Shown: one piece after another, positions 645 to 60,456 of the stretch
How positions within the stretch are numbered: position 1 is the first letter of the stretch
Layout: every line of letters starts with the position of its first letter
IMG/VR virus record: IMGVR_UViG_3300018422_000001
Span: 1-64,000 of that record
Strand: one strand, 5' to 3'
Length of the DNA stretch: 64,000 nt
Source of the DNA: a virus
Translations under genes and position numbers: made by a program
Notes under the pieces: generated by a model
What the model saw: only the letters and a program-made list of their open reading frames with translations
What the model was told of the DNA's origin: nothing
Database searches by the model: none

Positions 645-683
645 TGAAATACCGCTTGCGTCTTTCAAGACCGGAGCTAGTCT
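645..683 (+). promoter_or_regulatory. Box A promoter/operator copy 1
   Basis: TGAAATACCGCTTGCGTCTTTCAAGACCGGAGCTAGTCT. TAGTCT ends 9 nt before ATG 693. Confidence 0.6.
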
Positions 684-692
684 CAAATACAG

Positions 693-1004
693 ATGGACAC
701 CAACGAGAAAACGCAGTCGTTCGAAGTCACGGTCGAAGCTTTCGTCGCCAAGCTCAATGCTCGCTCGGCAGAGCTTGCCGCGGCGGGCAAGAGCCCTCTT
801 TACAAGAGCTTCGGCTACACCATGGGACCTAAGCACGCGCGGATCTTCTCGATTTGCGGCAGCTCGCGATCCTCGCGGGCATTCTTCAGTCGTGACGGCT
901 TGATCCGACGCGCCGACAGCTGGAAAGCGGCGGGCCGTGTGCTCGGTTCGCACGACAGCGACGGTGCTTTTGCCTACGTTCTCGGCATCTATCTCAGCTA
1001 TTGA
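693..1004 (+). CDS. small early protein, unknown function (103 aa, MDTNEK...)
   Basis: ORF track. Start coupled to Box A copy 1. Stop abuts Box A copy 2. Confidence 0.6.
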   Translation: MDTNEKTQSFEVTVEAFVAKLNARSAELAAAGKSPLYKSFGYTMGPKHARIFSICGSSRSSRAFFSRDGLIRRADSWKAAGRVLGSHDSDGAFAYVLGIYLSY

Positions 1005-1043
1005 TGAAATAGTGCTAGCGCTTTTCAAAGACTCAGCTAGGTT
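1005..1043 (+). promoter_or_regulatory. Box A promoter/operator copy 2
   Basis: TGAAATAGTGCTAGCGCTTTTCAAAGACTCAGCTAGGTT. TAGGTT ends 6 nt before ATG 1050. Confidence 0.6.
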
Positions 1044-1049
1044 CAAGTC

Positions 1050-1829
1050 ATGGACAGCAAGGCAACACGGTCTCTCAACAAGCAATCGGTCGGCGTCGTC
1101 GCGGTGGCGATGTATGGCAAGCGTCGCGAGAAGTTTCTCGCGAGTGTCGCTGTGATCAACGAATCGCTCGCACAAGGCGCCTGGATCAAGCGCGGCTCGG
1201 CAAAAGCCGACGTTGGTTTCTATCAGGGCCTCGAGTCGAAACAGCGCAGAATGCAGCCCTTCCGGCTCGAGATGTGCGTGAATTACGGCCAAGCTTTCGC
1301 AGAAGAGCTGACTGATGAGATGTGCACGCAAACGGCGAATCCGCGCGTGTTGCGCGCCTGGGTTTCGCTCTGCAGCGAGGTTGCCGCCGCCCGTAAGCTT
1401 CTCGACGCGGCCCGCCCGCGACCGGTTGTGACGGCGATCGGGCTCTCGCCGAAAGTCACCAAGACGTTTCAAGAGTGCAATCTCGATCTCGACAGCACGA
1501 CGATCGCGCCTGCAGAAATCGAGCGCTGCGAGGTCCAGCGCCGACACTCGGTGACGGGCGAACCGTGTTTCACGGCGGCGGGCGTGCCTGAGATGGAGGT
1601 GTTTTACCGAGTCAAGTGGTCGACGGGAATCGCGTTGCACGTGAGCCGCTTCTCGTACAGCAACGGCTGCGAGGCGTGTGGCAAGTCGATTCCGAGCGGT
1701 CGATTCGTGCCGATCGAGGCCGACTGCCGCAAGCTTGGCAAGCGGATCGGGATGTGGGTCGGCTGCGATTGCGCGCGGAACATCTTTGGGATCAAGGACA
1801 TCGGGATCGGCCGAACCGAGGCGGTCTGA
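1050..1829 (+). CDS. early protein with C-terminal Cys-rich (Zn-ribbon-like) module (259 aa)
   Basis: ORF track. Leaderless-type start after Box A. C-terminal CEACGKSIPSGRFVPIEADCRKLGKRIGMWVGCDCARNIFG. Confidence 0.65.
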   Translation: MDSKATRSLNKQSVGVVAVAMYGKRREKFLASVAVINESLAQGAWIKRGSAKADVGFYQGLESKQRRMQPFRLEMCVNYGQAFAEELTDEMCTQTANPRVLRAWVSLCSEVAAARKLLDAARPRPVVTAIGLSPKVTKTFQECNLDLDSTTIAPAEIERCEVQRRHSVTGEPCFTAAGVPEMEVFYRVKWSTGIALHVSRFSYSNGCEACGKSIPSGRFVPIEADCRKLGKRIGMWVGCDCARNIFGIKDIGIGRTEAV

Positions 1830-1863
1830 AATCGACGCGAAGGGCCTCGACAACGGGGCCCGC

Positions 1864-2157
1864 ATGCGGGACACTAAGAGCATGGCCACGAAGACGAAGA
1901 AACTCAGGATCGTGCTCGCGAAACTCGTCGATGACGTCGAGGTGATCTCGGCCGGTGCTCGCGACCTCGGAGAGGCGCCGACTCTCGCGGCGATCAAGCG
2001 CGCGGTCGCGGTCGTCTGGAAGTTGAGCGGGACAGAGACCGACCTCGAGAAGGCGCGGAAGTTCGCGGCGATTGAGGGTTACACTGTGCTTGTCTACAAG
2101 ACGAGCGAGCGCAATCCGCTCGAGCGGGCCCGCGCGGAGATCTCGGCTGCCGGCTGA
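1864..2157 (+). CDS. small hypothetical protein (97 aa; alternative ATG 1882)
   Basis: In-frame part of ORF 1678..2157 downstream of the 1050..1829 stop. No own Box A, so probably co-transcribed. Confidence 0.45.
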   Translation: MRDTKSMATKTKKLRIVLAKLVDDVEVISAGARDLGEAPTLAAIKRAVAVVWKLSGTETDLEKARKFAAIEGYTVLVYKTSERNPLERARAEISAAG

Positions 2158-2181
2158 TTCTCGAGCGGCTGCCGCAAGTTA

Positions 2182-2220
2182 TGAAATACCGCTAGCGCTT
2201 TTCAAGGCCCGCGCTAGAGT
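2182..2220 (+). promoter_or_regulatory. Box A promoter/operator copy 3
   Basis: TGAAATACCGCTAGCGCTTTTCAAGGCCCGCGCTAGAGT. TAGAGT ends 6 nt before ATG 2227. Confidence 0.6.
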
Positions 2221-2226
2221 CTAGGT

Positions 2227-2388
2227 ATGAACACGATGACAAACCGAATCGCCAGCCGCTACGAGCAACTTCTTCGCGAGCTGCAGAGCGACATGTGCGA
2301 CCTCGTTGCGAGTGGCGACATGACCGACGTCGAGGCGAATGAGTGGGTCAACGCGGCGGCGGATCGGTGGGCAGCCGAACAAGGCTGA
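2227..2388 (+). CDS. small early protein (53 aa, MNTMTNRIASRYEQLL...), below ORF-track cutoff
   Basis: Hand translation: ATG 2227 to TGA 2386..2388 without stops. Bracketed by Box A copy 3 and hairpin 2403..2425. Confidence 0.55.
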   Translation: MNTMTNRIASRYEQLLRELQSDMCDLVASGDMTDVEANEWVNAAADRWAAEQG

Positions 2389-2402
2389 AAGGCCCGGAGC
2401 GC

Positions 2403-2425
2403 GCCGCTCGAGAATCTCGAGCGGC
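2403..2425 (+). terminator. GC-rich hairpin (10-bp stem GCCGCTCGAG / CTCGAGCGGC, loop AAT)
   Basis: Perfect inverted repeat read directly. No T-tract. The same hairpin recurs at 3635 and 3945. Confidence 0.5.
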
Positions 2426-2437
2426 TGCCGCAAGTTA

Positions 2438-2476
2438 TGAAATACCGCTAGCGCATTTCAAGAGCCGGGCTAGAGT
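2438..2476 (+). promoter_or_regulatory. Box A promoter/operator copy 4
   Basis: TGAAATACCGCTAGCGCATTTCAAGAGCCGGGCTAGAGT. TAGAGT ends 6 nt before ATG 2483. Confidence 0.6.
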
Positions 2477-2482
2477 CTACAC

Positions 2483-2641
2483 ATGGACGACGCACTCAAC
2501 ATCCTGAACCGATTCGAGACCGCCCGCGCGAAAGCCATGGACGCGGAAGCCCGTAACCTCTCGCAGGCAACCCAGCGCAAGCGCTGGCGTGAGTTTTTCG
2601 CGGCGGAAGACGCCCTCAAAGCTCGCGACGGCTGGCGTTGA
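2483..2641 (+). CDS. small early protein (52 aa, MDDALNILNRFETARAK...), below ORF-track cutoff
   Basis: Hand translation ATG 2483 to TGA 2639..2641. The stop overlaps the TGAAA of the next Box A. Confidence 0.55.
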   Translation: MDDALNILNRFETARAKAMDAEARNLSQATQRKRWREFFAAEDALKARDGWR

Positions 2642-2677
2642 AATACCGCTAGCGCTTTTCAATGCCGGAGCTAGGAT
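2639..2677 (+). promoter_or_regulatory. Box A promoter/operator copy 5
   Basis: TGAAATACCGCTAGCGCTTTTCAATGCCGGAGCTAGGAT. TAGGAT ends 6 nt before ATG 2684. Confidence 0.6.
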
Positions 2678-2683
2678 CAACAC

Positions 2684-2875
2684 ATGGACCGAACGCAGCG
2701 AGTGGCTTTGAGTAGCGAACTAAACCGCCTGAATCTCGAGAGGGCGGCTCTGAATCGGAAACGCGGCCCTCTCGGGCACGGCGTGATTTATCACGCGGAT
2801 CTCGCGGAGAAGCGGATCGCCTTGACAGCGCGGATCGAAGAGATCCGGGGCTTGTTGAGCGAGGGCAAGTCATGA
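2684..2875 (+). CDS. small early protein (63 aa, MDRTQRVA...)
   Basis: ORF track. Leaderless-type start after Box A. Confidence 0.6.
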   Translation: MDRTQRVALSSELNRLNLERAALNRKRGPLGHGVIYHADLAEKRIALTARIEEIRGLLSEGKS

Positions 2876-3069
2876 GCATCACGCGAGAGCAACTCGACTC
2901 GCACCAATGCGATCGCGCCCGATCGTGGTGGGAACACGACGCGCAAGGCATCCCGCTCTGTCGGGTGTGCGACAAATGCAGACAGAGCAAGCTGTCGCGC
3001 TACAGGCCCGAGATTCTGAGCGGCTACGATCAATCTGACGTCGACGAGCCGATCGATCCCGACGAGTGA
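2872..3069 (+). CDS. small Cys-rich protein (65 aa)
   Basis: ORF track. ATGA overlap with the previous gene. CDRARSWWEH...CRVCDKCRQSK pattern and acidic tail. Confidence 0.55.
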   Translation: MSITREQLDSHQCDRARSWWEHDAQGIPLCRVCDKCRQSKLSRYRPEILSGYDQSDVDEPIDPDE

Positions 3070-3268
3070 GACCGCCGCCCGCGGGGCAGCCCGAGAGCCC
3101 GAGAGGCCCGCGCCGGGGCCCGAGTCGCACGGCCGCCGATCTGCGCCGCTCGAGAGCCCGAGAGGCCCGATCCGGGGCAGCTCGAGACCGCCGATCGGCG
3201 CCGCTCGAGACCGCCGAATCGGCGCAGCCCCGAGATCGCTCGAGGCCCGCCGAACAATCGACCGGCGC
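3070..3268. repeat. GC-rich degenerate short-repeat spacer (CTCGAG-centred words)
   Basis: CGCCGCTCGAGAGCCCGAGAGGCCCG-type words repeated inside the spacer and also at 245..268. Several GCCGCTCGAGA(C/G)C units. Confidence 0.8.
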
Positions 3269-3271
3269 CGT

Positions 3272-3310
3272 TGAAATACCGCTAGCGCTTTTCAAGGCCG
3301 GAGCTAGAGT
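3272..3310 (+). promoter_or_regulatory. Box A promoter/operator copy 6
   Basis: TGAAATACCGCTAGCGCTTTTCAAGGCCGGAGCTAGAGT. 6 nt before ATG 3317. Confidence 0.6.
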
Positions 3311-3316
3311 GAAGAC

Positions 3317-3622
3317 ATGGACAACGCAGTCGCAAAAATCATCGTGTCTCAGCTCGGCAACCGCGGTTTGACGATGCTCGGCGCGAGCAACCTCGTCGCG
3401 GGCGAAAACAGCCTGACCTTCAAGATTGGCCGTAATGGCAAGTCGGTCTCGCACATCCGGATCACGCTGCAGCCGAGCGACACCTACACGGTCGAATCGC
3501 TCCGCGTGCGTAAGAGCGGCGGCGTGCCGGTGTGCAAGACGCTCGAGACCTGCGAAGACGTGCACGTCGAGAGCCTGCGACGCACCATCGAGGGCTTTAC
3601 CGCGATGTACATGAGCCTGTGA
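3317..3622 (+). CDS. small early protein (101 aa, MDNAVAKI...)
   Basis: ORF track. Leaderless-type start. Followed by hairpin 3635..3657. Confidence 0.6.
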   Translation: MDNAVAKIIVSQLGNRGLTMLGASNLVAGENSLTFKIGRNGKSVSHIRITLQPSDTYTVESLRVRKSGGVPVCKTLETCEDVHVESLRRTIEGFTAMYMSL

Positions 3623-3634
3623 GCCGCCGCCCGC

Positions 3635-3657
3635 GCCGCTCGAGAATCTCGAGCGGC
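3635..3657 (+). terminator. GC-rich hairpin GCCGCTCGAG-AAT-CTCGAGCGGC
   Basis: Identical to the hairpin at 2403..2425. Confidence 0.5.
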
Positions 3658-3669
3658 TGTGACGACTTG

Positions 3670-3708
3670 TGAAATACCGCTAGCGTCTTTCAAGGCGGGA
3701 GCTAGAGT
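3670..3708 (+). promoter_or_regulatory. Box A promoter/operator copy 7
   Basis: TGAAATACCGCTAGCGTCTTTCAAGGCGGGAGCTAGAGT. 6 nt before ATG 3715. Confidence 0.6.
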
Positions 3709-3714
3709 CTACAC

Positions 3715-3933
3715 ATGGACACGAAGCAAGCACTCACTCTGATTTATCGGCACACGCACAAGGACTACCGCGGCAAGCTCGCGGGCCGCAAGACGATCCT
3801 GATGGGTCGCCCGGGCGTCGGCACCTGCCTCGTGTTTCTCGAGGATTTGACGGCGGCGGAGATCGCCTCGCTGCTACCCGGGGCAGAGCGCCGAGAAGCC
3901 GAGCGGCTCGCGAAGAAGGCGCTCAAAGCTTGA
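3715..3933 (+). CDS. small early protein (72 aa, MDTKQALT...)
   Basis: ORF track. Leaderless-type start. Hairpin follows. Confidence 0.6.
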   Translation: MDTKQALTLIYRHTHKDYRGKLAGRKTILMGRPGVGTCLVFLEDLTAAEIASLLPGAERREAERLAKKALKA

Positions 3934-3944
3934 GCGAGGCCCGC

Positions 3945-3967
3945 GCCGCTCGAGATTCTCGAGCGGC
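3945..3967 (+). terminator. GC-rich hairpin GCCGCTCGAG-ATT-CTCGAGCGGC
   Basis: Perfect 10-bp stem read directly. Confidence 0.5.
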
Positions 3968-3979
3968 TGCCGCAAGTTA

Positions 3980-4018
3980 TGAAATACCGCTAGCGCTTTT
4001 CAAGACTGGAGCTAGATT
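3980..4018 (+). promoter_or_regulatory. Box A promoter/operator copy 8
   Basis: TGAAATACCGCTAGCGCTTTTCAAGACTGGAGCTAGATT. 6 nt before ATG 4025. Confidence 0.6.
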
Positions 4019-4024
4019 GAAGTT

Positions 4025-4243
4025 ATGGAAACGAATCGCAAGAACACGCCGACCTGGACCGTGACGGAAGCCGTAGTGAACGAGCGCGGGATGCTCGTGT
4101 GCACGACCCGCAGCCTGACCTTTCGCGCCGAAAACGCCCTCGAGGCCGACGGCATCATGGTCGGTTGGGCCCGCTTTATCGGCGCGACCGCCGTGTATGT
4201 GCGCAACCCCTGGATGCACAACGAGTACGCGACCGCGGTTTGA
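4025..4243 (+). CDS. small early protein (72 aa, METNRKNT...)
   Basis: ORF track. The first 4 codons are nearly identical at DNA level to gene 4368. Confidence 0.6.
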   Translation: METNRKNTPTWTVTEAVVNERGMLVCTTRSLTFRAENALEADGIMVGWARFIGATAVYVRNPWMHNEYATAV

Positions 4244-4322
4244 GACCGCCCGCCCGCGCCGGGGAACGACCGGCGCCCGGCGCCCGCCGACAGGGCCCGC
4301 GGGAACAATCGACCGGCGCCGT

Positions 4323-4361
4323 TGAAATACCGCTAGCGCTTTTCAAGGCCGGAGCTAGATT
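4323..4361 (+). promoter_or_regulatory. Box A promoter/operator copy 9
   Basis: TGAAATACCGCTAGCGCTTTTCAAGGCCGGAGCTAGATT. 6 nt before ATG 4368. Confidence 0.6.
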
Positions 4362-4367
4362 GAAGTT

Positions 4368-4670
4368 ATGGAAACGAACCGCAACGAGACGCAGACGCTC
4401 TTCGCCCTCATGACCGACCGCGACGAAGCTTGGCGCTGCAGCAAGTGCTCGGGCAAGGGTGTGATTGACGCCTACCACTGGAACAAGGACGGGCTCTGCT
4501 TCAAGTGCGAGGGCACCGGCGCCGCTCAGGATGCGCGCTCGCTCAAGACGGTCGAGCGGCTCGACGCGAAGATCGCCAAGCTCAGCGCCTCGATTCAGGC
4601 GCGCGCGCCGAAAGCCGAGGAACTGCCGGATCTCGCGGACATCGACCTCTCGGCTCTGATGAGCGGCTGA
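4368..4670 (+). CDS. small protein with two DnaJ-type CxxCxGxG zinc-finger motifs (100 aa)
   Basis: CSKCSGKG and CFKCEGTG motifs. Leaderless-type start after Box A. Confidence 0.65.
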   Translation: METNRNETQTLFALMTDRDEAWRCSKCSGKGVIDAYHWNKDGLCFKCEGTGAAQDARSLKTVERLDAKIAKLSASIQARAPKAEELPDLADIDLSALMSG

Positions 4671-4680
4671 AACCTACAGG

Positions 4681-4694
4681 GCCCCGATCGGGGC
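4681..4694 (+). terminator. short GC hairpin (palindrome GCCCCGATCGGGGC)
   Basis: Perfect 14-nt palindrome 11 nt after the stop of 4368..4670. Confidence 0.4.
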
Positions 4695-4730
4695 TCTCCG
4701 AGCCCGCGCCGAACAATCGACCGGCGCCGT

Positions 4731-4769
4731 TGAAATACCGCTAGCGCTTTTCAAGACTCGAGCTAGATT
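4731..4769 (+). promoter_or_regulatory. Box A promoter/operator copy 10
   Basis: TGAAATACCGCTAGCGCTTTTCAAGACTCGAGCTAGATT. 6 nt before GTG 4776. Confidence 0.6.
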
Positions 4770-4775
4770 CAAGAC

Positions 4776-4946
4776 GTGGACAGCAACAACCTGACGTTCT
4801 GGGGATACTCGAAGATCAACGGCCGCACTTTCGGCGCCTGGCTCCGCGCGGCGGGCCGCCATGATGGCAACGTAACCGCTGTAGGTTACATGGACTTGCA
4901 AGCGGCTTGGCGCCGGGGCGAAAAGCCCGCGGATCACACCTACTGA
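4776..4946 (+). CDS. small early protein (56 aa, VDSNNLTFWGYSKING...), below ORF-track cutoff
   Basis: Hand translation GTG 4776 to TGA 4944..4946. Followed by a terminator-like hairpin. Confidence 0.5.
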   Translation: MDSNNLTFWGYSKINGRTFGAWLRAAGRHDGNVTAVGYMDLQAAWRRGEKPADHTY

Positions 4947-4955
4947 AGACCTGCA

Positions 4956-4984
4956 GGGGCCGCCTAGAGCGGCCCTTGTTCGTT
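4956..4984 (+). terminator. rho-independent-like terminator (GGGCCGC-CTAGA-GCGGCCC then TTGTTCGTT)
   Basis: 7-bp GC stem, 5-nt loop, T-rich tail read directly. Confidence 0.6.
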
Positions 4985-5207
4985 CCCCGACCGAGAGGCG
5001 CCGCCGCCCGCGCGCGCCGCCTGCGACCGTCAGAGCCCCGCTCGAGACCGCTCGAGACCGCCGCTCGAGACCGCCGACCGCGCCTGCGACCGTCAGAGCC
5101 CCGCGCCGAGACCGCCTGCGACCGCCGCCCGCGCCGGGGCAAGCTCGAGACCGCCGACCGAGACCGCGACGGATCGGCGCTCGAGAATCTCGAGCGGCTG
5201 CCGCAAG
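4985..5207. repeat. GC-rich degenerate short-repeat spacer
   Basis: CGCCTGCGACCGTCAGAGCCCCGC occurs twice. CCGCTCGAGACCG units. Ends in hairpin CGCTCGAG-AAT-CTCGAGCG at 5178..5196. Confidence 0.8.
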
Positions 5208-5210
5208 TTA

Positions 5211-5249
5211 TGAAATACCGCTAGCGTCTTTCAACGCGCGAGCTAAGCT
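5211..5249 (+). promoter_or_regulatory. Box A promoter/operator copy 11
   Basis: TGAAATACCGCTAGCGTCTTTCAACGCGCGAGCTAAGCT. 6 nt before ATG 5256. Confidence 0.55.
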
Positions 5250-5255
5250 CTGGTT

Positions 5256-5432
5256 ATGACAACGACGAGCAACGCGAAGACCTGGATTGTGGCCGAGTAT
5301 CGCAGCGACGACTTTTACGGCCAGACCGAGAACCTCACCTTGCAGGCAGCACACGCGCTAGCCGAAAAGATTCGGGAGAGCGGGCACGAAGCCTCGGTGG
5401 TCGACAACCTCGCTGACCTCGAATCTTTCTGA
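5256..5432 (+). CDS. small early protein (58 aa, MTTTSNAKTWIVAEYRSDDFYGQ...), below ORF-track cutoff
   Basis: Hand translation ATG 5256 to TGA 5430..5432. Hairpin follows. Confidence 0.55.
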   Translation: MTTTSNAKTWIVAEYRSDDFYGQTENLTLQAAHALAEKIRESGHEASVVDNLADLESF

Positions 5433-5446
5433 GAAGAGCCCCGACC

Positions 5447-5471
5447 GGGCCCCGGGGAACAGCCGGGGCCC
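5447..5471 (+). terminator. GC hairpin GGGCCCCGG-GGAACAG-CCGGGGCCC
   Basis: Perfect 9-bp stem read directly, 15 nt after the stop codon. Confidence 0.5.
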
Positions 5472-5624
5472 GCGCCGCTCGAGACCGCCGCTCGAGACCG
5501 CCGAGACCGCCGCTCGAGACCGCCGCTCGAGACCGCCGACCCGCGCCGACCCGCGCCGACCGCGCCGACCGCGCCGACCGCGCCGACCGCGCCGACCCGC
5601 GACGACCCGCGCCGAGACCGCCGA
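5472..5624. repeat. two adjoining microsatellite-like arrays (13-bp CCGCTCGAGACCG x4; 9/10-bp CCGAC(C)CGCG x8)
   Basis: Read directly from 5472..5624. Confidence 0.9.
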
Positions 5625-5663
5625 CGAAATACCGCTAGCGTTTTTCAAGACTCGAGCTAGGAT
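5625..5663 (+). promoter_or_regulatory. Box A promoter/operator copy 12
   Basis: CGAAATACCGCTAGCGTTTTTCAAGACTCGAGCTAGGAT. 6 nt before ATG 5670. Confidence 0.6.
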
Positions 5664-5669
5664 CAAGAC

Positions 5670-6212
5670 ATGGACAGCAACGCAACCGAGATGTCGACCG
5701 AGACGAAGAAGATTCACCCTTTCGAGCGCAACGGGCTCGGGATCGCGCCTTTCAAATACGTCGGCTTTTATGTCTCGAAGTATCAGGCGATCCCGGGCGA
5801 CCCGAGTTGCCCGATTCAGGCGGGAAGCTCGTGCGACCATTGCGGAACCGCGATCATGAATGTTTGCCGGATCAAGTCGGCAGACGGTCGCGAATTCAAG
5901 GTCGGCAACGAATGCGTTGCCAAGGTCGGTCGCGAGTACGATCGCGCTCTCTTGACCGTCGTCGAGGCCGCCGCTCGCAAGAGGGCCCGAGTCGCCGCTA
6001 AGAGCCTCGCAGCGGCCCGCGCCGACGAGTTGGCGACCTTGCTCGCGACCGACTCGGTTCGGGCGACCCTGGCCCTGCAGCCGCACCCGCACCCCTACCG
6101 CGCCGGTCTTGGTGAGACCCTTCTCGACTCGCTCGAGTTTGCGGTCAAGCGTAGCGGCGCGGCGGGCAAGGCGCGCGCCCTCAAGACGATCAAGACGCTG
6201 ATCGGCGCGTGA
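5670..6212 (+). CDS. early protein with Cys-rich module (180 aa)
   Basis: ORF track. SSCDHCGTAIMNVCRIKSADGREFKVGNECVAKVG resembles the C-terminus of 1050..1829. Confidence 0.65.
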   Translation: MDSNATEMSTETKKIHPFERNGLGIAPFKYVGFYVSKYQAIPGDPSCPIQAGSSCDHCGTAIMNVCRIKSADGREFKVGNECVAKVGREYDRALLTVVEAAARKRARVAAKSLAAARADELATLLATDSVRATLALQPHPHPYRAGLGETLLDSLEFAVKRSGAAGKARALKTIKTLIGA

Positions 6213-6220
6213 GCGCACAC

Positions 6221-6240
6221 GGGCCCGCCAAGTCGGGCCC
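6221..6240 (+). terminator. GC hairpin GGGCCCG-CCAAGT-CGGGCCC
   Basis: 7-bp perfect stem 9 nt after the stop. Confidence 0.45.
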
Positions 6241-6271
6241 GCTCGGTGTTCCTACGCCGGATCGCGGTCGC

Positions 6272-6310
6272 TGAAATACAGCTGGCGCTTTTCAACCGCG
6301 CTGCTAGGCT
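6272..6310 (+). promoter_or_regulatory. Box A promoter/operator copy 13 (diverged)
   Basis: TGAAATACAGCTGGCGCTTTTCAACCGCGCTGCTAGGCT. 6 nt before ATG 6317. Confidence 0.5.
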
Positions 6311-6316
6311 CTGGAC

Positions 6317-6625
6317 ATGGACAGCGTGAGCAAGACGGGTCTCGCGAAAGCGCGCAAGGTGGCGAGAGCCGAGCGAGCGAACTACGAGGCGGCGAGATGG
6401 GCTGCTCTCGCAGCGGGCCGACAGGCGCGAGCCCGCAAGACCGGCAGAGCCCGCATGATCCGAGAAGACGCTCTTGATGCAGCGCTCGAGGCCCGGATCA
6501 CGATGAAACATTACGCGGCGGTGCTCGCTCGAATGCTCGCTCTCCCGGTCGAGCCTTTCGCGGGCCGGAACAGCCCCGCGGCGATCGCGCGGCTGCGAGC
6601 GAGCGGCCGACTCGATCCAGCGTGA
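6317..6625 (+). CDS. small early protein, Arg/Ala-rich (102 aa, MDSVSKTG...)
   Basis: ORF track. Leaderless-type start. Confidence 0.55.
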   Translation: MDSVSKTGLAKARKVARAERANYEAARWAALAAGRQARARKTGRARMIREDALDAALEARITMKHYAAVLARMLALPVEPFAGRNSPAAIARLRASGRLDPA

Positions 6626-6953: not shown

Positions 6954-6960
6954 GGAACCC

Positions 6961-11846: not shown

Positions 11847-11848
11847 CG

Positions 11849-14084: not shown

Positions 14085-14135
14085 TCCGAAGATTGGGCTT
14101 CTCCCGAGCCCGTCTCGAGGGCTACCGTCGGGCCC

Positions 14136-16024: not shown

Positions 16025-16051
16025 ACGGGCCGTGTTGTCAAGAGTCGACCG

Positions 16052-17100: not shown

Positions 17101-17140
17101 TCGGTGTGCTCCGGGCCGGGGTTGCGTCTGGCCTCACTCA

Positions 17141-17179
17141 ACACTAGCTCCGGTCTTGAAAAGCGCTAGCGGTATTTCT
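17141..17179 (-). promoter_or_regulatory. Box A promoter/operator copy 14 (minus strand; only copy with a ~45-nt leader)
   Basis: Reverse complement AGAAATACCGCTAGCGCTTTTCAAGACCGGAGCTAGTGT. Confidence 0.55.
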
Positions 17180-17436
17180 CAGGCGCCCGCCGTCCACACG
17201 TGCACTCGCCAATCGTTGCCGTCGACGTCGGTACCCCAATACTCATGATGAGGGCGCTCGGCATCGTGCACGGCGACGTCACCTTCGCACTCGACGAAGA
17301 GAGCGGCGCATACAACGCTCGGATCGAGGCGGCCCGCCTGAGCCATGTCGACGGCATCGATCCAGACAGTCTGTCCGCGCGAGATCGATTCGTTGATTGA
17401 GTGGTCGATGAGCTGAGAGAGGTTATTCGTGGACAT
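17179..17436 (-). CDS. small early protein (85 aa)
   Basis: ORF track. GGAG before ATG 17436. Confidence 0.55.
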   Translation of the reverse strand: MSTNNLSQLIDHSINESISRGQTVWIDAVDMAQAGRLDPSVVCAALFVECEGDVAVHDAERPHHEYWGTDVDGNDWRVHVWTAGA

Positions 17437-17480
17437 GGTTTACTCCAATCGGTGAGGTCGGTTCGGTTGCCGGGATCTGG

Positions 17481-17717
17481 TTACGCCTGCTCGCGAGAGG
17501 CGAGCCATGCTCGACCGGTCTCGGTTGCGCGCGCGTGATTGGCGTTTCGAGTCGCGAAGCCGATGCTCACGAGGTGCTCGATCGCGTTCCACCATCGCGC
17601 GGCATCGGGGCCCGCCATGCGGTAGCCGCTCGGTGTCAGCGATCCGTCCGCTGTAGCCGCCTCGGTGAGCACGACGACGCGGTAGGCGGTCAACTTGATT
17701 GGTTTCTGCGATGCCAT
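17481..17717 (-). CDS. small early protein (78 aa)
   Basis: ORF track. ATG 17717 lies 6 nt after the TAGAGT of minus-strand Box A. Confidence 0.6.
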   Translation of the reverse strand: MASQKPIKLTAYRVVVLTEAATADGSLTPSGYRMAGPDAARWWNAIEHLVSIGFATRNANHARATETGRAWLASREQA

Positions 17718-17723
17718 GATTTG

Positions 17724-17762
17724 ACTCTAGCTCCGGTCTTGAAAAGCGCTAGTGGTATTTCA
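17724..17762 (-). promoter_or_regulatory. Box A promoter/operator copy 15 (minus strand)
   Basis: Reverse complement TGAAATACCACTAGCGCTTTTCAAGACCGGAGCTAGAGT. Confidence 0.6.
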
Positions 17763-17805
17763 CCGAGGCCGAGGGAATCGGATCCGGATCCGCGTGCTCA
17801 TGCCA

Positions 17806-17988
17806 TCAGACCTTGACCGTACACGCGACTGGATACTGCCCGGCAGTCTGCGACATCCAGCGACCCGCGCTGACTTCGTACACGTGCAACCCGCGAAGCA
17901 CGTAGGTGTGTGGCGGCTCGCCCGGGCCGACCGAGAACGTGTTGCGCACTTCCATCCACTGCCCGTTGACTCTGATTTGCTTGCTCAC
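17806..17988 (-). CDS. small early protein (60 aa from GTG 17988)
   Basis: GTG 7 nt after the TAGGCT of Box A copy 16. C-terminal part of ORF 17806..18222. Confidence 0.5.
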   Translation of the reverse strand: MSKQIRVNGQWMEVRNTFSVGPGEPPHTYVLRGLHVYEVSAGRWMSQTAGQYPVACTVKV

Positions 17989-17995
17989 AACAGAC

Positions 17996-18034
17996 AGCCT
18001 AGCTCGGTCGCTGAAAGATGCAAGCGGTATTTCA
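17996..18034 (-). promoter_or_regulatory. Box A promoter/operator copy 16 (minus strand, diverged)
   Basis: Reverse complement TGAAATACCGCTTGCATCTTTCAGCGACCGAGCTAGGCT. Confidence 0.5.
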
Positions 18035-18220
18035 ACCGCTCTTGAGTGTTGCCTTGTACACGGCGACAGTGACGTAGCCGTCACGGTGGCTCTTTGTGCG
18101 CACGACGCGAGAGCCGTCCGGCTGATAGGCCGTTTCAAAGCAAACTTTCGGCCCGGGCGCGCACACGATGCGCACTGCCGTCGACTTCGCTTCTGCCCAC
18201 TTGAGATCGATGTTCTCCAC
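18032..18220 (-). CDS. small early protein (62 aa)
   Basis: ORF track. GTG 18220 lies 23 nt downstream of the Box B TAGTGT. Confidence 0.55.
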   Translation of the reverse strand: MENIDLKWAEAKSTAVRIVCAPGPKVCFETAYQPDGSRVVRTKSHRDGYVTVAVYKATLKSG

Positions 18221-18236
18221 ACCTCAACCGTAGCTT

Positions 18237-18253
18237 ATCCGGGACACTAGCGC
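18237..18253 (-). promoter_or_regulatory. Box B motif copy 2
   Basis: ATCCGGGACACTAGCGC. Confidence 0.55.
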
Positions 18254-18289
18254 AAGAGGCTCGGCTCGAGAATCGACTGCGCGCCGGGC

Positions 18290-18337
18290 GCAGACGGCAG
18301 ACGGCAGACGGCAGACGGCAGACGGCAGACGGCAGAC
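18290..18337. repeat. 7-bp microsatellite (GCAGACG) x6.9
   Basis: Read directly. Lies between two Box B copies. Confidence 0.95.
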
Positions 18338-18380
18338 TGGATCGCGTATCCGCGGAAGACTAGATAAGCGCCGGGCCGGT

Positions 18381-18397
18381 ATCCGGGACACTAGCGC
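18381..18397 (-). promoter_or_regulatory. Box B motif copy 3
   Basis: ATCCGGGACACTAGCGC. Confidence 0.5.
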
Positions 18398-18425
18398 CGG
18401 TTTCCCTAGGCGCTGTCGCAAGTTA

Positions 18426-18464
18426 TGAAATACCGCAAGCGCTTTTCAGAGGCGGAGCTAGTCT
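18426..18464 (+). promoter_or_regulatory. Box A promoter/operator copy 17
   Basis: TGAAATACCGCAAGCGCTTTTCAGAGGCGGAGCTAGTCT. 7 nt before GTG 18472. Confidence 0.55.
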
Positions 18465-18471
18465 GTGGTTT

Positions 18472-22023: not shown

Positions 22024-22063
22024 TGAAATACCGCTTGCGTGTTTCAAAGGCTCGCGCTAGAGT
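22024..22063 (+). promoter_or_regulatory. Box A promoter/operator copy 18 (40 nt)
   Basis: TGAAATACCGCTTGCGTGTTTCAAAGGCTCGCGCTAGAGT. 6 nt before GTG 22070. Confidence 0.55.
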
Positions 22064-22069
22064 CTTGGT

Positions 22070-22288
22070 GTGAGCAAGATCATTTTCATCCGGCACTCAT
22101 CAGGCGCAACGCATGCACTCGGCGGCAAGCGACTCGCGAAACTGCTCTCCGAGCTGAAAGCCGGGCGCGGGCAAGTCGAGATGTGCCGCTTGCAGGAAAA
22201 CGGGTACATGGAGACGATGTCGGGTCACTGCATCAGCGATTTGACGTACGAGCTTGCTCTGCGCCTCGCATCCGGCGCAGCCGAGTGA
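22070..22288 (+). CDS. small early protein (72 aa)
   Basis: ORF track. Leaderless-type GTG start. Confidence 0.55.
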   Translation: MSKIIFIRHSSGATHALGGKRLAKLLSELKAGRGQVEMCRLQENGYMETMSGHCISDLTYELALRLASGAAE

Positions 22289-22301
22289 TCCCGGGCGGTT
22301 G

Positions 22302-22340
22302 TGAAATACCGCTTGCGTGTTTCAAAGCGTGAGCTAGGCT
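22302..22340 (+). promoter_or_regulatory. Box A promoter/operator copy 19
   Basis: TGAAATACCGCTTGCGTGTTTCAAAGCGTGAGCTAGGCT. 6 nt before GTG 22347. Confidence 0.55.
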
Positions 22341-22346
22341 CAAGAC

Positions 22347-22442
22347 GTGGACATCAGAGAGCGCGGCACCGGTTGGATTCTTTCACTAGTCGACGTCGTT
22401 TTCGTCGCGATTTTTCGGGTGCCTCTGACCCGCCCGTTTTGA
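22347..22442 (+). CDS. possible 31-aa leaderless micro-ORF (VDIRERGTGWILSLVDVVFVAIFRVPLTRPF)
   Basis: Hand translation. Hydrophobic core. Very short, so uncertain. Confidence 0.3.
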   Translation: MDIRERGTGWILSLVDVVFVAIFRVPLTRPF

Positions 22443-22449
22443 GGCAAGC

Positions 22450-22725
22450 ATGACACCCATCGAGTTTTGGCCCATCGTGCGACGCAAGGGCCGCGCGGGA
22501 TACAGCGCTGCGCACTTCGCGGCGGTTAGCCCGCAAGCCGACAACCCTCTGCTCGTTGCCGAGCGACTCGCGGCCCGCGTGTCGGGCTCGAGTCGTGAGC
22601 GGAACTGGAGCGAGCTTTGCGAGTCTTGGGATTTTCTGATCGCGACGCTCGAGAGGCATTCGGCCGAGCCGCAGATCGCCAAGTTTCTCAAAGCGGCCGT
22701 GAAAGCGAAGAAGAGCGCGACCTGA
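22450..22725 (+). CDS. small hypothetical protein (91 aa)
   Basis: ORF track. Confidence 0.5.
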   Translation: MTPIEFWPIVRRKGRAGYSAAHFAAVSPQADNPLLVAERLAARVSGSSRERNWSELCESWDFLIATLERHSAEPQIAKFLKAAVKAKKSAT

Positions 22726-22758
22726 GCCGGGGGAAACCCGAGAGGTCCCGAGTGGTTA

Positions 22759-22797
22759 TGAAATACCGCTAGCGCTTTTCAAGGCTTGAGCTAGAGT
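22759..22797 (+). promoter_or_regulatory. Box A promoter/operator copy 20
   Basis: TGAAATACCGCTAGCGCTTTTCAAGGCTTGAGCTAGAGT. Confidence 0.55.
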
Positions 22798-22835
22798 CTT
22801 GTTGTGGGCACGAGAGCCCCGAGACGGAGTCGAAG

Positions 22836-24749: not shown

Positions 24750-24835
24750 GATTTGCGCACGAGCATGTCTGCGTTGCGGCTCTGATCGGAATACCGTGCA
24801 GGGGACCCTCCTAGGTCTCTTCGGTGCGCGTGATC

Positions 24836-24866
24836 TGCGAGGCCCTTTTCAGACAAGGGCCTCGCA
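24836..24866 (+). terminator. 12-bp perfect-stem hairpin TGCGAGGCCCTT-TTCAGAC-AAGGGCCTCGCA
   Basis: Read directly. Lies between gene 23775..24749 and the likely XRE start at 24890. Confidence 0.55.
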
Positions 24867-24889
24867 GGTCGTTTCGATCGGGAGGTCGT

Positions 24890-25294
24890 GTGAAACGGGT
24901 CAACATCAACGATCGGCGTTGGGGGCGACTGCCTCGCTTCTGCAGCGGTCAGATCCTGCGAGACGCGCGCGAGAGTGCGTCGCTCACGTTACGAGTCGTG
25001 AGCGACGTCACGGGGATCGCGAGTTGCTCGATCAGCGACATGGAGCGCGGGATCGCAGCAACCCCGCTGCATCACGTGCACGTGCTCTGCGAAGCCCTGC
25101 AGCTCGACCGAGCGAAGCTCATCGAAGCCATTTTGCAAGACAAACTTCTCGAGGTCGGGTTGATCGGCTACGCGGTGTGTGTGGCCCCGGGGCCACACAG
25201 CCAAACCGCCGCAACCGAGCTACCCGAGGCCGCCGACCGGGCCGGCTCAACCGAGGCCGCTAGCGGCCCGCATACGGGCTCGAGGCGGGGTTAG
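24890..25294 (+). CDS. XRE-family HTH regulator (repressor-like)
   Basis: GQILRDARESASLTLRVVSDVTGIASCSISDMERG. GGAGG before GTG 24890. The ORF track start 24824 would include the hairpin. Confidence 0.65.
   Translation: MKRVNINDRRWGRLPRFCSGQILRDARESASLTLRVVSDVTGIASCSISDMERGIAATPLHHVHVLCEALQLDRAKLIEAILQDKLLEVGLIGYAVCVAPGPHSQTAATELPEAADRAGSTEAASGPHTGSRRG
25179..25198. repeat. 18-bp palindrome family copy c (GTGTGGCCCCGGGGCCACAC)
   Basis: Inside the 3' tail of the XRE ORF, between convergent genes. Confidence 0.8.
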
Positions 25295-25438: not shown

Positions 25439-25930
25439 TCACCCTTGCGCAGCAGTCGCGGGCGCAGCCGCTTGAGCGGCTCGCAACCAGGCGACCGCAG
25501 CGGCACTCGGGCGCTTGCGTCGACGAGTGCTCTCGCAGACGGCGCACAAAGTCTGGCGACCGGTCTTGCGAACGTATGCCTCGCCACACTTGCGACAATC
25601 AGGCGTTGCGATCGTCCGAGAACCGAGCCACGTGACATCGCCTCCGCTGTTTTCGGCGATCTTACTCAGAGCCATGTTTTCGATCTGCCGCACTCGCTCG
25701 CGTGTGATCGACATGACACGGCCAATCTCTTCGAGCGTCATCCCAAATGGGTGCTCGCTCACGGCCTGTTGAGCGGCGGGGTGCATTTCCCATTCGAGAT
25801 CCGACCACGGATCAGGTATGTGCGCCGGGGCTCGACCACGTCTCGGCGCGGGTCTTTGGGGACAGACCTCGAGCACGGTTTGAGATGTCGCAGCGATTGG
25901 CGTTTTTCGAATGCGAATCTTGTACGGCAC
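25439..25930 (-). CDS. sigma-70 region-4-like HTH protein with C-terminal Zn ribbon
   Basis: HPFGMTLEEIGRVMSITRERVRQIENMALSKIAE (region 4.2-like), then CRKCGEAYVRKTGRQTLCAVC. No region 2 seen. Confidence 0.6.
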   Translation of the reverse strand: MPYKIRIRKTPIAATSQTVLEVCPQRPAPRRGRAPAHIPDPWSDLEWEMHPAAQQAVSEHPFGMTLEEIGRVMSITRERVRQIENMALSKIAENSGGDVTWLGSRTIATPDCRKCGEAYVRKTGRQTLCAVCESTRRRKRPSAAAVAWLRAAQAAAPATAAQG

Positions 25931-26052
25931 GCCAGAGTTTTAGTGGCTCTAGCAATGTGGGAGCTAGGCCCCTCTAGCTATTGCGTTGGCGATTTTAGTT
26001 GCACATAAACGAGACCCAAGAGGCCCGCATACCGGGCGCGAGACGAAAAACC

Positions 26053-26448
26053 ATGCGAAAAGTATTGTTGTTGTCGGCTATTCGGTTGGTACGTGGCGAT
26101 CAGGCTGCTCTCGACGAGATTCTGCGCGCCTTGCGCAAGACCTCGGGAAACATGCGGCAAGCCTGCGAGCAACTCGGGCTTGGCAAGTCGTCGATGTATC
26201 GACTCATCGACGAGCTTGGCGCGCGAGAAGCGGTCGACGCTCTGATCGAGTCGAAGGGCTACAAGGTCAAGGGTCGCGACAAGGATCGGGCGGTCGAGCC
26301 GGCTCGTCGTAAGCGGATCGAAGATGAAGTCGGGGCTGCAAGTCGACGCAAGCGCAAGGCTTCAGTGACGACTCTCAAGACGAAGCCCGAGCACGAGCCC
26401 GTAGCTGCACAAGGCCCGCGCGCTCGCGTCAAAAAGGCTTCTGCATGA
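26053..26448 (+). CDS. Fis/NtrC-type HTH DNA-binding protein with basic tail
   Basis: SGNMRQACEQLGLGKSSMYRLIDELG. Confidence 0.55.
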   Translation: MRKVLLLSAIRLVRGDQAALDEILRALRKTSGNMRQACEQLGLGKSSMYRLIDELGAREAVDALIESKGYKVKGRDKDRAVEPARRKRIEDEVGAASRRKRKASVTTLKTKPEHEPVAAQGPRARVKKASA

Positions 26449-26929: not shown

Positions 26930-27244
26930 GTGCTCTGCACTCGGTGCCACAAGCAAGCCGCTGTCGAGGGGACACGGCGCTGCGAGTCGTGCCGAACGTA
27001 CATGAACGAGCGGCAACGCGAGCAACGCATCCGACGCGAGCGCGAGTCTCGATGCCTCTGCGGGCGATCGTGCGGCGACTATCGGATACGGTGCGACGCA
27101 TGTCTCGACGAAGAGCAGAGCGCTCGCGACGAGCTGCAGGCCCGACGCGAGCGCGAGCACTCGTGCATCTTGTGCGGCAAGCGTAGCCCTGCAGCGGGCC
27201 TCAAGACGTGCCGAGCCTGCATCGACCGGCTACTACGGCGTTGA
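26930..27244 (+). CDS. multi-CxxC zinc-finger protein (104 aa)
   Basis: CTRCH, CESCR, CDAC, CILCG and CRAC pairs. Confidence 0.5.
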   Translation: MLCTRCHKQAAVEGTRRCESCRTYMNERQREQRIRRERESRCLCGRSCGDYRIRCDACLDEEQSARDELQARREREHSCILCGKRSPAAGLKTCRACIDRLLRR

Positions 27245-36720: not shown

Positions 36721-36784
36721 AACCCCGAACCTGACCGATCACCGTTTGACGGGCGACCCGACCGGGCGCTCTTTGGAGATTTCC

Positions 36785-60427: not shown

Positions 60428-60456
60428 CCTCTGGGTTTGTAACCCCGGGGCCACAT
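60426..60456. repeat. 18-bp palindrome family copy f (inverted orientation relative to copy e)
   Basis: Reverse complement begins ATGTGGCCCCGGGGTTACAA, identical over 20 nt to copy e. Confidence 0.8.

Follow-up and report, generated by a model that had tools for sequence, protein, structure and literature searches.

A phage protein joining a sigma region 4.2-like helix-turn-helix to a zinc ribbon, a candidate regulator of −35-type promoter elements

Why would a phage encode a near copy of the −35-reading part of a primary sigma factor as a free-standing protein with a zinc ribbon behind it? The question is raised by an open reading frame (ORF) at 25439..25930 on the minus strand of a 64,000-nucleotide stretch of the IMG/VR virus record IMGVR_UViG_3300018422_000001 (hereafter the window). 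The original prediction took its product for a sigma-70 region-4-only protein that might read GCTAGC, the hexamer standing in place of −35 in a repeated early promoter called Box A, and named an ordinary helix-turn-helix (HTH) regulator as a fallback. Here, the domain make-up, family conservation and synteny of the protein are described together with promoter comparisons among its relatives, and a DNA target, a sign of regulation and a possible contact with RNA polymerase are proposed. The ORF product is not a sigma factor. Our leading interpretation, tentatively held and drawn from sequence comparison, is that it may be a stand-alone sigma-4.2-derived DNA-binding regulator of −35-type hexamers, and the fallback appears to be the more economical reading than a specificity factor for GCTAGC.

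Domain make-up and conservation of the protein

The full product of the ORF, MPYKIRIRKTPIAATSQTVLEVCPQRPAPRRGRAPAHIPDPWSDLEWEMHPAAQQAVSEHPFGMTLEEIGRVMSITRERVRQIENMALSKIAENSGGDVTWLGSRTIATPDCRKCGEAYVRKTGRQTLCAVCESTRRRKRPSAAAVAWLRAAQAAAPATAAQG, begins at a GTG and runs to 163 amino acids (aa), the coordinates including the stop codon, and contains HPFGMTLEEIGRVMSITRERVRQIENMALSKIAE; coordinates and length agree with the original prediction. A stop codon lies four codons upstream of the GTG, and an indel just upstream of it in the relative L081 argues that coding starts there. Guanine–cytosine (GC) content is flat by codon position (0.64/0.59/0.63), whereas third-position GC in neighbouring genes is near 0.75, and for this reason a crude gene caller skipped the ORF. 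Despite this, it is taken as coding because homologues exist: a word-indexed search returned 28 at E ≤ 1e-3 and 27 at E ≤ 3e-5. The GTG stands directly before (R/P)-Y-(R/K)-I-R, in frame, in the window and in L081, L082, L167 and L171, and the N-terminal Arg-rich repeats are taken as translated since they stay in frame, with conservative R/K and I/V changes, while the DNA diverges. The ORF and its modules are as follows.

25439..25930, minus strand: sigma-region-4/zinc-ribbon ORF, GTG at 25930 (ORF list, Pfam, 28 homologues)
25904..25927, minus strand: Arg-rich motif P-Y-K-I-R-I-R-K, aa 2–9 (in-frame conservation in L171, L082, L167 and L163)
25826..25846, minus strand: PRRGRAP, aa 29–35, putative AT-hook-like basic motif (KRRGRAP kept in the close subfamily)
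25781..25813, minus strand: DPWSDLEWEMH, aa 40–50, family signature before the HTH (W and D invariant in 25 aligned segments)
25646..25744, minus strand: HTH equivalent to sigma region 4.2, aa 63–95, with recognition helix T76–E84 (Pfam, NCBIfam, PDB profile, Foldseek, family alignment)
25526..25603, minus strand: C4 zinc ribbon, aa 110–135, with C112, C115, C129 and C132 (conservation; predicted confidence 85–91)
25508..25525, minus strand: basic tail RRRKRP, aa 136–141 ((R/K)RRKRP kept in the close subfamily)

The proposed likeness to sigma region 4.2 is borne out by Pfam Sigma70_r4 (PF04545; E 3.5e-9, 36.5 bits against a cut-off of 24.1; aa 63–91) and by PDB profile matches at about 1e-11. 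A profile of the family retrieves SigA/RpoD region 4 chains from the PDB at E 4e-11 to 2e-8, including 1KU7, a sigma-4 domain on −35 DNA, and the PDB alignments show TRERIRQIE; the family sequence TLEEIGavMGITRERVRQIEnsALaKLrens aligns, near-identically, with the 31-residue HTH of SigA. All NCBIfam matches fall on the extreme C-terminal 4.2 segment of the RpoD, SigA, RpoS and RpoH models, and PHROGs labels the same segment "RNA polymerase sigma factor". Over 33 residues, the HTH is identical to cellular sigma 4.2 segments at 20–22 positions across many phyla, and points to no particular host; tblastn with the portal protein was also uninformative on the host. The absence of region 2 that had been noted holds as well, given that Sigma70_r2, r3 and r1_2 were not matched in Pfam, NCBIfam or PHROGs at E ≤ 1. 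The Pfam match spans only positions 20–48 of the 50 in the model, and some 60 residues precede the HTH, which are Arg-rich or carry the DPW motif. Since the match begins at model position 20, DPWSDLEWEMH has no similarity to sigma region 4.1.

In sigma-70, T583-R584-E585-R586-I587-R588-Q589 form the recognition helix that reads TTGACA; R584, E585, R588 and Q589 of the E. coli protein have roles in −35 contact, and in alternative sigmas the recognition-helix residues change along with promoter specificity. The reading of TTGACA by this helix was reportedly described by Campbell and co-workers in 2002. The helix of the phage protein is identical to that of SigA chains crystallized on −35 DNA (1KU7). 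As its recognition helix, TRERVRQIE, is the same as in a primary sigma, the expected target is a TTGACA-type hexamer and not GCTAGC. The helix is, moreover, essentially invariant in phages of widely differing hosts, over loci ranging from 38% to 71% GC, which argues for a universal target, the −35 box being the obvious candidate.

An AlphaFold2 model built on the family alignment, a check that the original prediction had called for, reached a mean predicted local distance difference test (pLDDT) of 75 and a predicted template modelling (TM) score of 0.40, the latter suggesting that the domains are probably flexibly linked. The model has helices at 51–59, 66–73 and 77–93 followed by two beta hairpins, with a pLDDT of 85–91 in the ribbon and about 70 at DPWSDLEWEMH. 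The top Foldseek matches in the PDB are sigma-A domain 4 structures (5TW1, 4G8X, 3N97 and 1KU7), with target-normalized TM-scores of 0.45–0.58 for isolated sigma-4 chains and weak E-values (0.4–1), as the domain is small; against BFVD, Foldseek returned nothing significant.

The ribbon and basic tail are where they had been predicted, with cysteines C112, C115, C129 and C132 in a CxxC-13-CxxC spacing and RRRKRP behind them. No specific zinc-finger family in Pfam matched the ribbon, and DksA/TraR, WhiB-like and lambda-Q-type zinc families had no Pfam or NCBIfam match at E ≤ 1 and were absent from the 50 Foldseek PDB matches listed of 530. Small terminase, DksA/TraR-like, WhiB-like and anti-sigma (ZAS) identities were dropped for want of a profile match and because of the wrong cysteine pattern or gene context. 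At the other end, relatives carry one to four copies of RxRx(R/K), such as PRLRVRQ and GRIRTR, for which a nucleic-acid-binding role may be supposed. PRRGRAP may likewise be AT-hook-like; it has Ala inserted compared with the strict core R-G-R-P and is confined to the close subfamily.

The 28 homologues are all metagenomic, all have PF04545 as their sole Pfam domain, and share the core KRRGRAPxxIPDPWxDLEWExHxxAxxxVxxHPxGMTLEEIGxxMxITRERVRQIExxALxKLxxNxGxDxxWxGxxTxxxPDCxRCGExFVRxTGRQxxCxxCExTRRRKRP. An exhaustive HMMER search found 211 representatives at E ≤ 1e-10, about 55 of which span the DPW motif, the HTH and the ribbon. The family, made up of phage and metagenome sequences, comprises about 55 clusters at 50% identity. 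Among 55 such representatives, aligned and 28–68% identical to the window protein, T76, R77, R79, Q82, A87, C112, C115 and C129 are invariant, and G63, M64, T65, L66, G70, E78, V80, R81, I83, E84, K90, R121, G124 and C132 are at least 90% conserved. The CxxC...CxxC ribbon is present in 53 of them, and 17 have an N-terminal CCHC zinc knuckle (CxxCGxxGHDRRxC), at whose place the window subfamily has RxRx(R/K) repeats and RRGRAP. A 94%-identical copy lies on IMGVR_UViG_3300018432_000014 (73.5 kb). When 50,697 phage records were searched by megablast with 12 kb and by tblastn with the protein, the sole matches were to the 4.2 segment of Vibrio phage sigma factors. The contig scan was dominated by cellular sigma factors (L001–L080); matches labelled "Thermoguttaceae" or "zinc-ribbon-covering" (L001, L007, L010 and L017) turned out to be full-length RpoD-type sigmas or unrelated proteins and were discarded.

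Box A and the early promoters of relatives

Box A occurs in 20 copies in the window, not the 13 first counted, and a small ORF lies directly downstream of every one.

645..6330, plus strand: cluster of 13 Box A early promoters (645, 1005, 2182, 2438, 2639, 3272, 3670, 3980, 4323, 4731, 5211, 5625 and 6272), candidate target of the sigma-4 protein
17130..18470, both strands: four further copies (minus 17179, 17762 and 18034; plus 18426)
22024..22810, plus strand: three copies nearest the gene (22024, 22302 and 22759), two of them with GCTTGC for GCTAGC

The consensus is (T/A/G)TGAAATACC-GCTAGC-GCTTTTCAAG-N4-GAGC-TAGNNT-N6-ATG(GAC). In 14 of the 20 copies the start codon comes 6 nt after the TAGNNT −10, and most or all Box A early genes therefore appear leaderless; their ORFs often begin ATGGAC (Met-Asp), as they do in L082 and L167. 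The 25-bp core is an imperfect palindrome with outer arms TTGAAA/TTTCAA, which are −35-like themselves. The hexamer 16 bp upstream of −10 reads TAGCGC in 11 copies and TAGCGT in three; TTG forms are TTGCGT (two, and one more at a 17-bp spacer) and TTGCAT (one), while TGGCGC and AAGCGC occur once each. GCTAGC is thus the majority form, and its claimed invariance is not upheld, since the −35 position has TAG in 14 copies and TTG in four. It looks like an ordinary TTGCGY −35 hexamer with a local T-to-A change. Read in this way, Box A is a leaderless sigma-A-type promoter of the ordinary sort, whose −35 box carries a T-to-A change and lies inside a palindromic operator; no exotic −35 element is involved. 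The exact pattern was found elsewhere only in the 94% relative IMGVR_UViG_3300018432_000014. Several copies are closely preceded by a GC-rich hairpin, GCCGCTCGAGAATCTCGAGCGGC, that lacks a T tract (2126–2180, 2382–2437, 3614–3668, 3924–3978 and 5155–5210); it looks like an insulating terminator, by which the early genes would form gene-by-gene promoter/terminator cassettes.

A region-4 mimic dedicated to GCTAGC is contradicted by relatives in which the helix is unchanged and the promoters are of other kinds. In L082, whose protein is 66% identical and retains ...GITRERVRQIE... in its HTH, the box is TTGAAATCGTG-TTGCAC-G(A/G)(A/T)(A/T)TCAAG-N5-GC-TA(C/G)(A/G)(G/A)T-N6-ATGGAC in at least eight copies; TTGCAC sits within TTGAAATCGTGTTGCACGAAATCAA, and the centre GTGTTGCAC sets it 16 bp from −10. 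The L082 and window boxes have arms, 25-bp length, −10 and leaderless ATGGAC in common and differ in the centre. The close orthologue in L171 (74% identical over the N-terminal core segment, same helix) goes with early promoters GCTTGC(G/T/A)T-ATCTGTCCCGCATCCGG-TACTGT-N6/7-ATG in at least seven copies, of the form GCTTGCNT-17-TACTGT, one copy reading CCTAGCTT, a CTAGCT form; TTGAAA arms are absent and another palindrome lies in the spacer. L167 (71% identical, same helix) has TTGAAT, TTGCTA, TTGATT or TTGACA-17-GACAGT-7-ATGGAC, with GTCCCGTATGCGGGAC in the spacer. Set against the Box A arms, the palindromes GTCCCGCATCCGGGAC and TGTAACCTCGAGGTTACA of L171 and L167 show that the operators differ whereas the helix does not. 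Within 10 kb of the gene, no GCTAGC box was found in L083, L084, L085, L163 or L165, and no TTGA-N17-TCAA palindrome in L083, L084, L163 or L165; L083 and L084 have other −10-centred motifs and L163 repeated hairpins. A scan for the pattern DPWxDLEW gave 5 IMG/VR loci and 8 JGI loci, too few for co-variation statistics. The putative palindromic operators vary by lineage, and the sigma-4 protein does not follow them. A −35-type hexamer, the most likely target, is the sole promoter element common to all phages carrying the protein.

Given the TAG hexamers, one may ask whether the protein serves as a surrogate for, or appropriator of, sigma region 4. It would then dock on host RNA polymerase, at the beta-flap or at the dock by the RNA exit, possibly by way of the zinc ribbon, and replace sigma-A region 4 on Box A, whose own −35 would be defective. 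A region-4-like domain without region 2 would suit such a role, the 14 promoters with TAG instead of TTG might need help, and in the window and L082 the −35-like TTGAAA arms lie 27–28 bp upstream of −10, one helical turn beyond normal. Strong conservation across hosts would also fit a conserved host partner. The window proteins scanned by Pfam, which hold about 43% of the predicted protein residues (most predicted proteins of 1–29 kb plus ten downstream of the portal gene), included neither a phage RNA polymerase nor a second sigma-like or region-2-like protein. Within the same scope, a split sigma of the SigO–RsoA, T4 gp55/gp33 or SPO1 gp33/34 kind found no region-2-like partner, though a diverged gp55-like partner would escape. 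In sigma-70, the flap tip is held by region 4.1 and by the C-terminal helix that follows 4.2. In the phage protein 4.1 is not detectably conserved, the Pfam match covering positions 20–48 and a single helix (aa 51–59) preceding the HTH, and the zinc ribbon replaces the C-terminal helix. The recognition helix is of the host type, so it offers no new specificity such as GCTAGC, and orthologues occur in phages with canonical TTGACA-17-GACNNT early promoters, for which no surrogate is needed. On balance, we consider a surrogate unlikely.

The arms suggest another role, that of an operator-specific prophage repressor resembling CI, which would bind as a dimer to the TTGAAAT/ATTTCAA arms of the 25-bp palindrome (centre at about −34) and silence some 20 early promoters. 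The arms resemble the sigma-4.2 target, and both they and the 25-bp length are kept between the window and L082 while the centre varies. In a scan of all family loci for TTGA-N(3-25)-TCAA, enrichment was confined to these two, where 5 and 8 occurrences of TTGA-N17-TCAA compare with expected numbers of 0.3 and 0.1; as an idea for the whole family, the arms therefore fail. L171 and L167, with orthologues 71–74% identical and the same HTH, lack the arms and have different palindromes. Immunity repressors normally co-vary with their operators, and in this family the helix does not change with the lineage-specific operators.

Further repeats were observed. Box C, a third promoter/operator type, reads TCGACA or TTGACA-17-GAC..T-6-ATG with the palindrome CCCG(C/T)AT(G/A)CGGG in the spacer; the early promoters that predominate in L171 and L167 belong to this type too. 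The window has TCGACA-17-GACACT-6-ATG at about 1859 on the plus strand (region ~1830–1890) and TTGACA-17-GACTGG-6-ATG at about 16029 on the minus strand (region ~15990–16050); a degenerate copy precedes the Fis-type HTH gene next to the sigma-4 gene (26024–26052, plus strand), and another lies between the XRE and sigma-4 genes (25267–25278). Box B, a palindrome family GTGTGGCCCCGGGGCCACA with GTAACC/GGTTAC variants, has six sites (8616, 14400, 25181, 28453, 46337 and 60439) against 0.38 expected, and an equivalent, TTGTAACCTCGAGGTTACAA, in L082, L167 and L171. It precedes by 5–20 nt the genes for the ParB-methylase (start at 28444, minus strand), the tape measure (start at 46374) and baseplate J (start at 60458), and may serve as an operator or late promoter element or form an RNA hairpin. 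In L163, a 600-bp non-coding stretch within 13300–14230 has about eight copies of the hairpin CAGCTCGGGG-aa-CCCGAGAC, which are iteron-like.

Gene neighbourhood and candidate modes of action

Pfam annotation and portal tblastn show that the window comes from a temperate myovirus-like phage. The immediate neighbours of the sigma-4 gene are the following.

24824..25294, plus strand: XRE-type HTH gene, tail-to-tail neighbour (HTH_31, 25.7 bits against a cut-off of 27)
25931..26052, no strand: divergent control region between the sigma-4 and Fis-HTH genes, with TAAAAC and a palindrome near the Fis-HTH start
26053..26448, plus strand: Fis-type HTH (HTH_8) gene, head-to-head partner (Pfam E 4.3e-4, below cut-off)

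The head-to-head arrangement with the Fis-HTH gene recurs in six lineages (the window, L081, L082, L083, L165 and L171), with a gap of 40–150 bp. In L163, L165, L167 and the P0017 contig, the sigma-4 gene stands alone on the strand opposite to long co-directional runs, between the regulatory/replication block and the portal block. This divergent or antisense layout suggests a genetic switch, with expression independent of the lytic operons. Identities by tblastn across loci are 62–71% for the sigma-4 protein, which is the best-conserved regulator of the module, 35–56% for the Fis-HTH protein and 27–37% for the XRE neighbour. In the control region, CCCGCATACCGGG forms a palindrome near the Fis-HTH start, and the window, L081 and L082 share TAAAAC 6–7 nt upstream of the GTG (6 nt in the window), which suggests that the sigma-4 mRNA may be leaderless too. 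The CTAG-rich repeats in 25931–26052 were rejected as operators as they are not conserved in L081. In L171, three direct CGTCAA repeats (TTGACG on the other strand) lie at 9630–9668, within 45 bp of the Fis-HTH/sigma-4 control region; they could be −35-like sites for the protein, a candidate set aside when it was not reproduced in other lineages.

This layout bears again on the CI-like repressor. A CI-type repressor gene diverges from the first lytic regulator and is expressed from the other strand. The sigma-4 gene, alone in antisense and divergent from the small Fis-type HTH gene, has a comparable position, reminiscent of cI/cro, and the window carries an integrase. The fast-evolving regulator is, however, the XRE neighbour, which its rapid divergence makes a better candidate than the sigma-4 protein for the operator-specific immunity factor, and a dimerization domain is not evident in the sigma-4 protein. 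We therefore hold a CI-like role to be improbable.

The position of the gene between the regulatory and the portal–capsid–tail blocks in the window, L163 and L167 brings up a late-gene activator of the LtrA, RinA or ArpU kind, acting on the morphogenetic operon that starts at 28905, about 3 kb away. Small Sigma70_r4-like LtrA proteins do activate late operons in Gram-positive phages (PMC3753634). Here, however, the gene is oriented opposite to the late operon with no terminase gene adjacent, has no significant similarity to phage 37 LtrA, and no TTG-type motif was identified upstream of 28905. Such an activator seems a doubtful candidate, with little probability in its favour.

Arg-rich repeats and retroviral-type CCHC knuckles are classic binders of RNA or single-stranded DNA. 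As both occur in the family, and many hairpins without T tracts lie between the early genes, the protein might be a factor of this kind, for example an antiterminator akin to lambda N or Q, in which the Arg-rich/CCHC N-terminus and the ribbon would bind the nucleic acid while the HTH anchors it at promoters. Against this, no similarity to N or Q families was seen in Pfam, PHROGs or the 50 listed of 530 Foldseek PDB matches, and the best-conserved part is an HTH that reads double-stranded DNA; this makes an antiterminator very improbable.

We return to the regulator of −35-type hexamers, which is favoured also by accessory modules of apparent nucleic-acid-binding type, namely the Arg-rich repeats or CCHC knuckle, the ribbon and the basic tail. 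The core three-helix domain, with its near copy of primary-sigma region 4.2, would bind TTGACA, TTGCNN or TTGAAA, while the N-terminus (MPYKIRIRK...RRGRAP; Arg-rich, AT-hook-like or CCHC) and the ribbon with RRRKRP would add affinity or a second contact. The AT-rich TTGAAAT/ATTTCAA arms around the Box A −35 hexamer are plausible sites. Bound at −35 in this way, the protein would influence how sigma-A holoenzyme of the host initiates transcription, and we lean, with low confidence, to a negative effect, in which competition with sigma region 4 would repress or shut off the early promoters; the leaning comes from the lack of new specificity and the repressor-like gene position. Together with the Fis-type HTH gene, the sigma-4 gene would then form a divergent regulatory pair, in which it would be the conserved member.

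Several considerations weigh against this proposal. DNA binding itself rests on sequence comparison, and isolated sigma-4 binds −35 DNA weakly, which leaves affinity and specificity to modules whose function is a guess. The host sigma has an identical helix, so that a competitor could not tell phage from host promoters without extra determinants, and the TAG variant at −35 would be a poor site for this protein too. The computed results put no constraint on the sign of regulation, the antisense, repressor-like position is suggestive and no more, and the window has three XRE-type candidates for a classical repressor. Conservation of the helix could, in addition, reflect mimicry of sigma-4 toward a protein partner and not toward DNA.

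A bolder proposal is that the whole family consists of free-standing −35-reading mimics, either decoys that occupy −35 boxes and thereby shut off −35-dependent transcription of host and early phage genes or bridges resembling a miniature TFIIB. As a bridge, the protein would place its zinc ribbon on RNA polymerase near the RNA exit and its HTH on a −35-like box one helical turn away from the usual place, for which the TTGAAA arm 27–28 bp from −10 would be an example. The decoy form, if true, would reach an AsiA-like outcome through DNA mimicry of sigma and not through sigma binding. We give this proposal a small chance.

Other genes of the window, strands being stated where assigned, are listed below as given by Pfam annotation and portal tblastn. 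Among the window proteins scanned, no terminase was identified, and PHROGs was uninformative on ten neighbouring proteins.

6910–7407, 14136–14396 and 24824–25294: XRE-type HTH genes
11840–13162: integrase
20834–21913: DNA ligase
27233–28444, minus strand: ParB-N/N6_N4 methylase
28489–28899, minus strand: DUF7768
29274–31274: portal
34970–35812: protease
36746–37720: capsid
42681–44627: sheath
46374–48677: tape measure
59501–61951: baseplate proteins

A ParE/HTH pair is also present (Pfam). At 18472–20259, an amidoligase_2 gene and, behind it, a GGACT (gamma-glutamyl cyclotransferase-like) gene form a pair conserved in L165 (2878–4723). The 753-aa protein encoded after the portal (31271–33532) is homologous to that after the portal in L163, which has a faint Phage_Mu_F match, and shows a weak C-terminal PI3_PI4_kinase match (E 4e-5, below cut-off) that would be odd for a head protein if real. 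At 55213–56031, within the ORF 55024–57333 for a 769-aa tail-region protein, seven tandem repeats of 126–129 nt encode Y-x-S-x-D-x-G-x-T-W, resembling Asp-box/BNR repeats, and 27-nt repeats lie at 53541–53675. At positions 1–200 the 15-nt unit CGGCGCCCTCGAGCC is repeated in tandem about 12 times; this may be coding low-complexity sequence or a genome-end repeat.

Comparison with known systems

No report of a phage protein combining sigma-4 with a zinc ribbon was found in the literature searched, and no characterized protein of such architecture in Pfam, NCBIfam, PHROGs, PDB, BFVD or that literature. The closest known domain is region 4.2 (domain sigma-4) of primary, group 1 sigma-70-family factors, for example Thermus SigA (PDB 1KU7), with a near-identical 31-residue HTH, a matching fold and all −35-reading residues kept. 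Compared with a primary sigma-70, the phage protein is free-standing, with 163 aa; it lacks regions 1.2–3, and hence both region-2 core binding and −10 recognition, 4.1 is not detectably conserved, and a C4 ribbon takes the place of the C-terminal helix. Boxes of the predicted target type, TTGACA, are universal. Regulators of the GerE/LuxR type have an HTH of the same superfamily as sigma-4 and are likewise small promoter-binding proteins that repress or activate. In contrast, the phage protein has no Pfam GerE match, its sequence is of the sigma 4.2 type, and it has additional zinc and Arg-rich modules.

Among phage proteins, the nearest precedent is LtrA, the Sigma70_r4-like late transcriptional regulators of Gram-positive phages, exemplified by phage 37 YP_240149 (Quiles-Puchalt et al. 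2013, PMC3753634). LtrA is also a small phage protein, essentially a sigma-region-4-like HTH regulating transcription, and so sets a precedent for region-4-only phage proteins. Membership of the window protein in this group was nevertheless rejected, as BLASTP gave no alignment with YP_240149 and hhalign a probability of 0.6% (E 0.09). The phage 37 protein has a single Cys and no zinc ribbon, whereas the window protein has a C4 ribbon; LtrA genes lie immediately upstream of terS and co-oriented with it, whereas the window gene is antisense and not adjacent to a terminase gene, as in L163 and L167.

Phage control at the sigma-4/beta-flap/−35 step is also exerted by T4 AsiA/MotA and by gp39 of the Thermus phage P23-45 (PMC3950348). 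The proposed effect of the window protein, altered use of −35-dependent promoters, would be control of a like kind. AsiA/MotA and gp39 have sigma region 4 or the flap as their binding partner and share no homology with sigma, whereas the window protein is a sigma-4.2 homologue with its DNA-reading residues intact; no similarity to AsiA/MotA or gp39 appeared in Pfam, NCBIfam, PHROGs or the Foldseek PDB matches listed. The activators Mor and C of phage Mu (bioRxiv 10.1101/2025.05.02.651988) invite comparison too, although no similarity between them and the window protein was detected. They are dimeric members of another family. Their promoters combine a good −10 and a poor −35 with an imperfect dyad over the −35 region, which resembles the layout of Box A, a candidate target of the window protein; their site is centred near −43.5, compared with −34 for Box A.

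Region-4-only phage regulators (LtrA) and phage attack on the sigma-4/−35 step are thus already known, and what is new is this architecture. Phages are known to attack the sigma-4/flap/−35 step with non-homologous binders (AsiA, gp39, gp67 and p7) and with remote sigma-4-like activators (LtrA); a conserved family in which a 4.2 helix of primary-sigma grade is kept residue for residue, alongside zinc and Arg-rich modules, would have solved this problem in another way.

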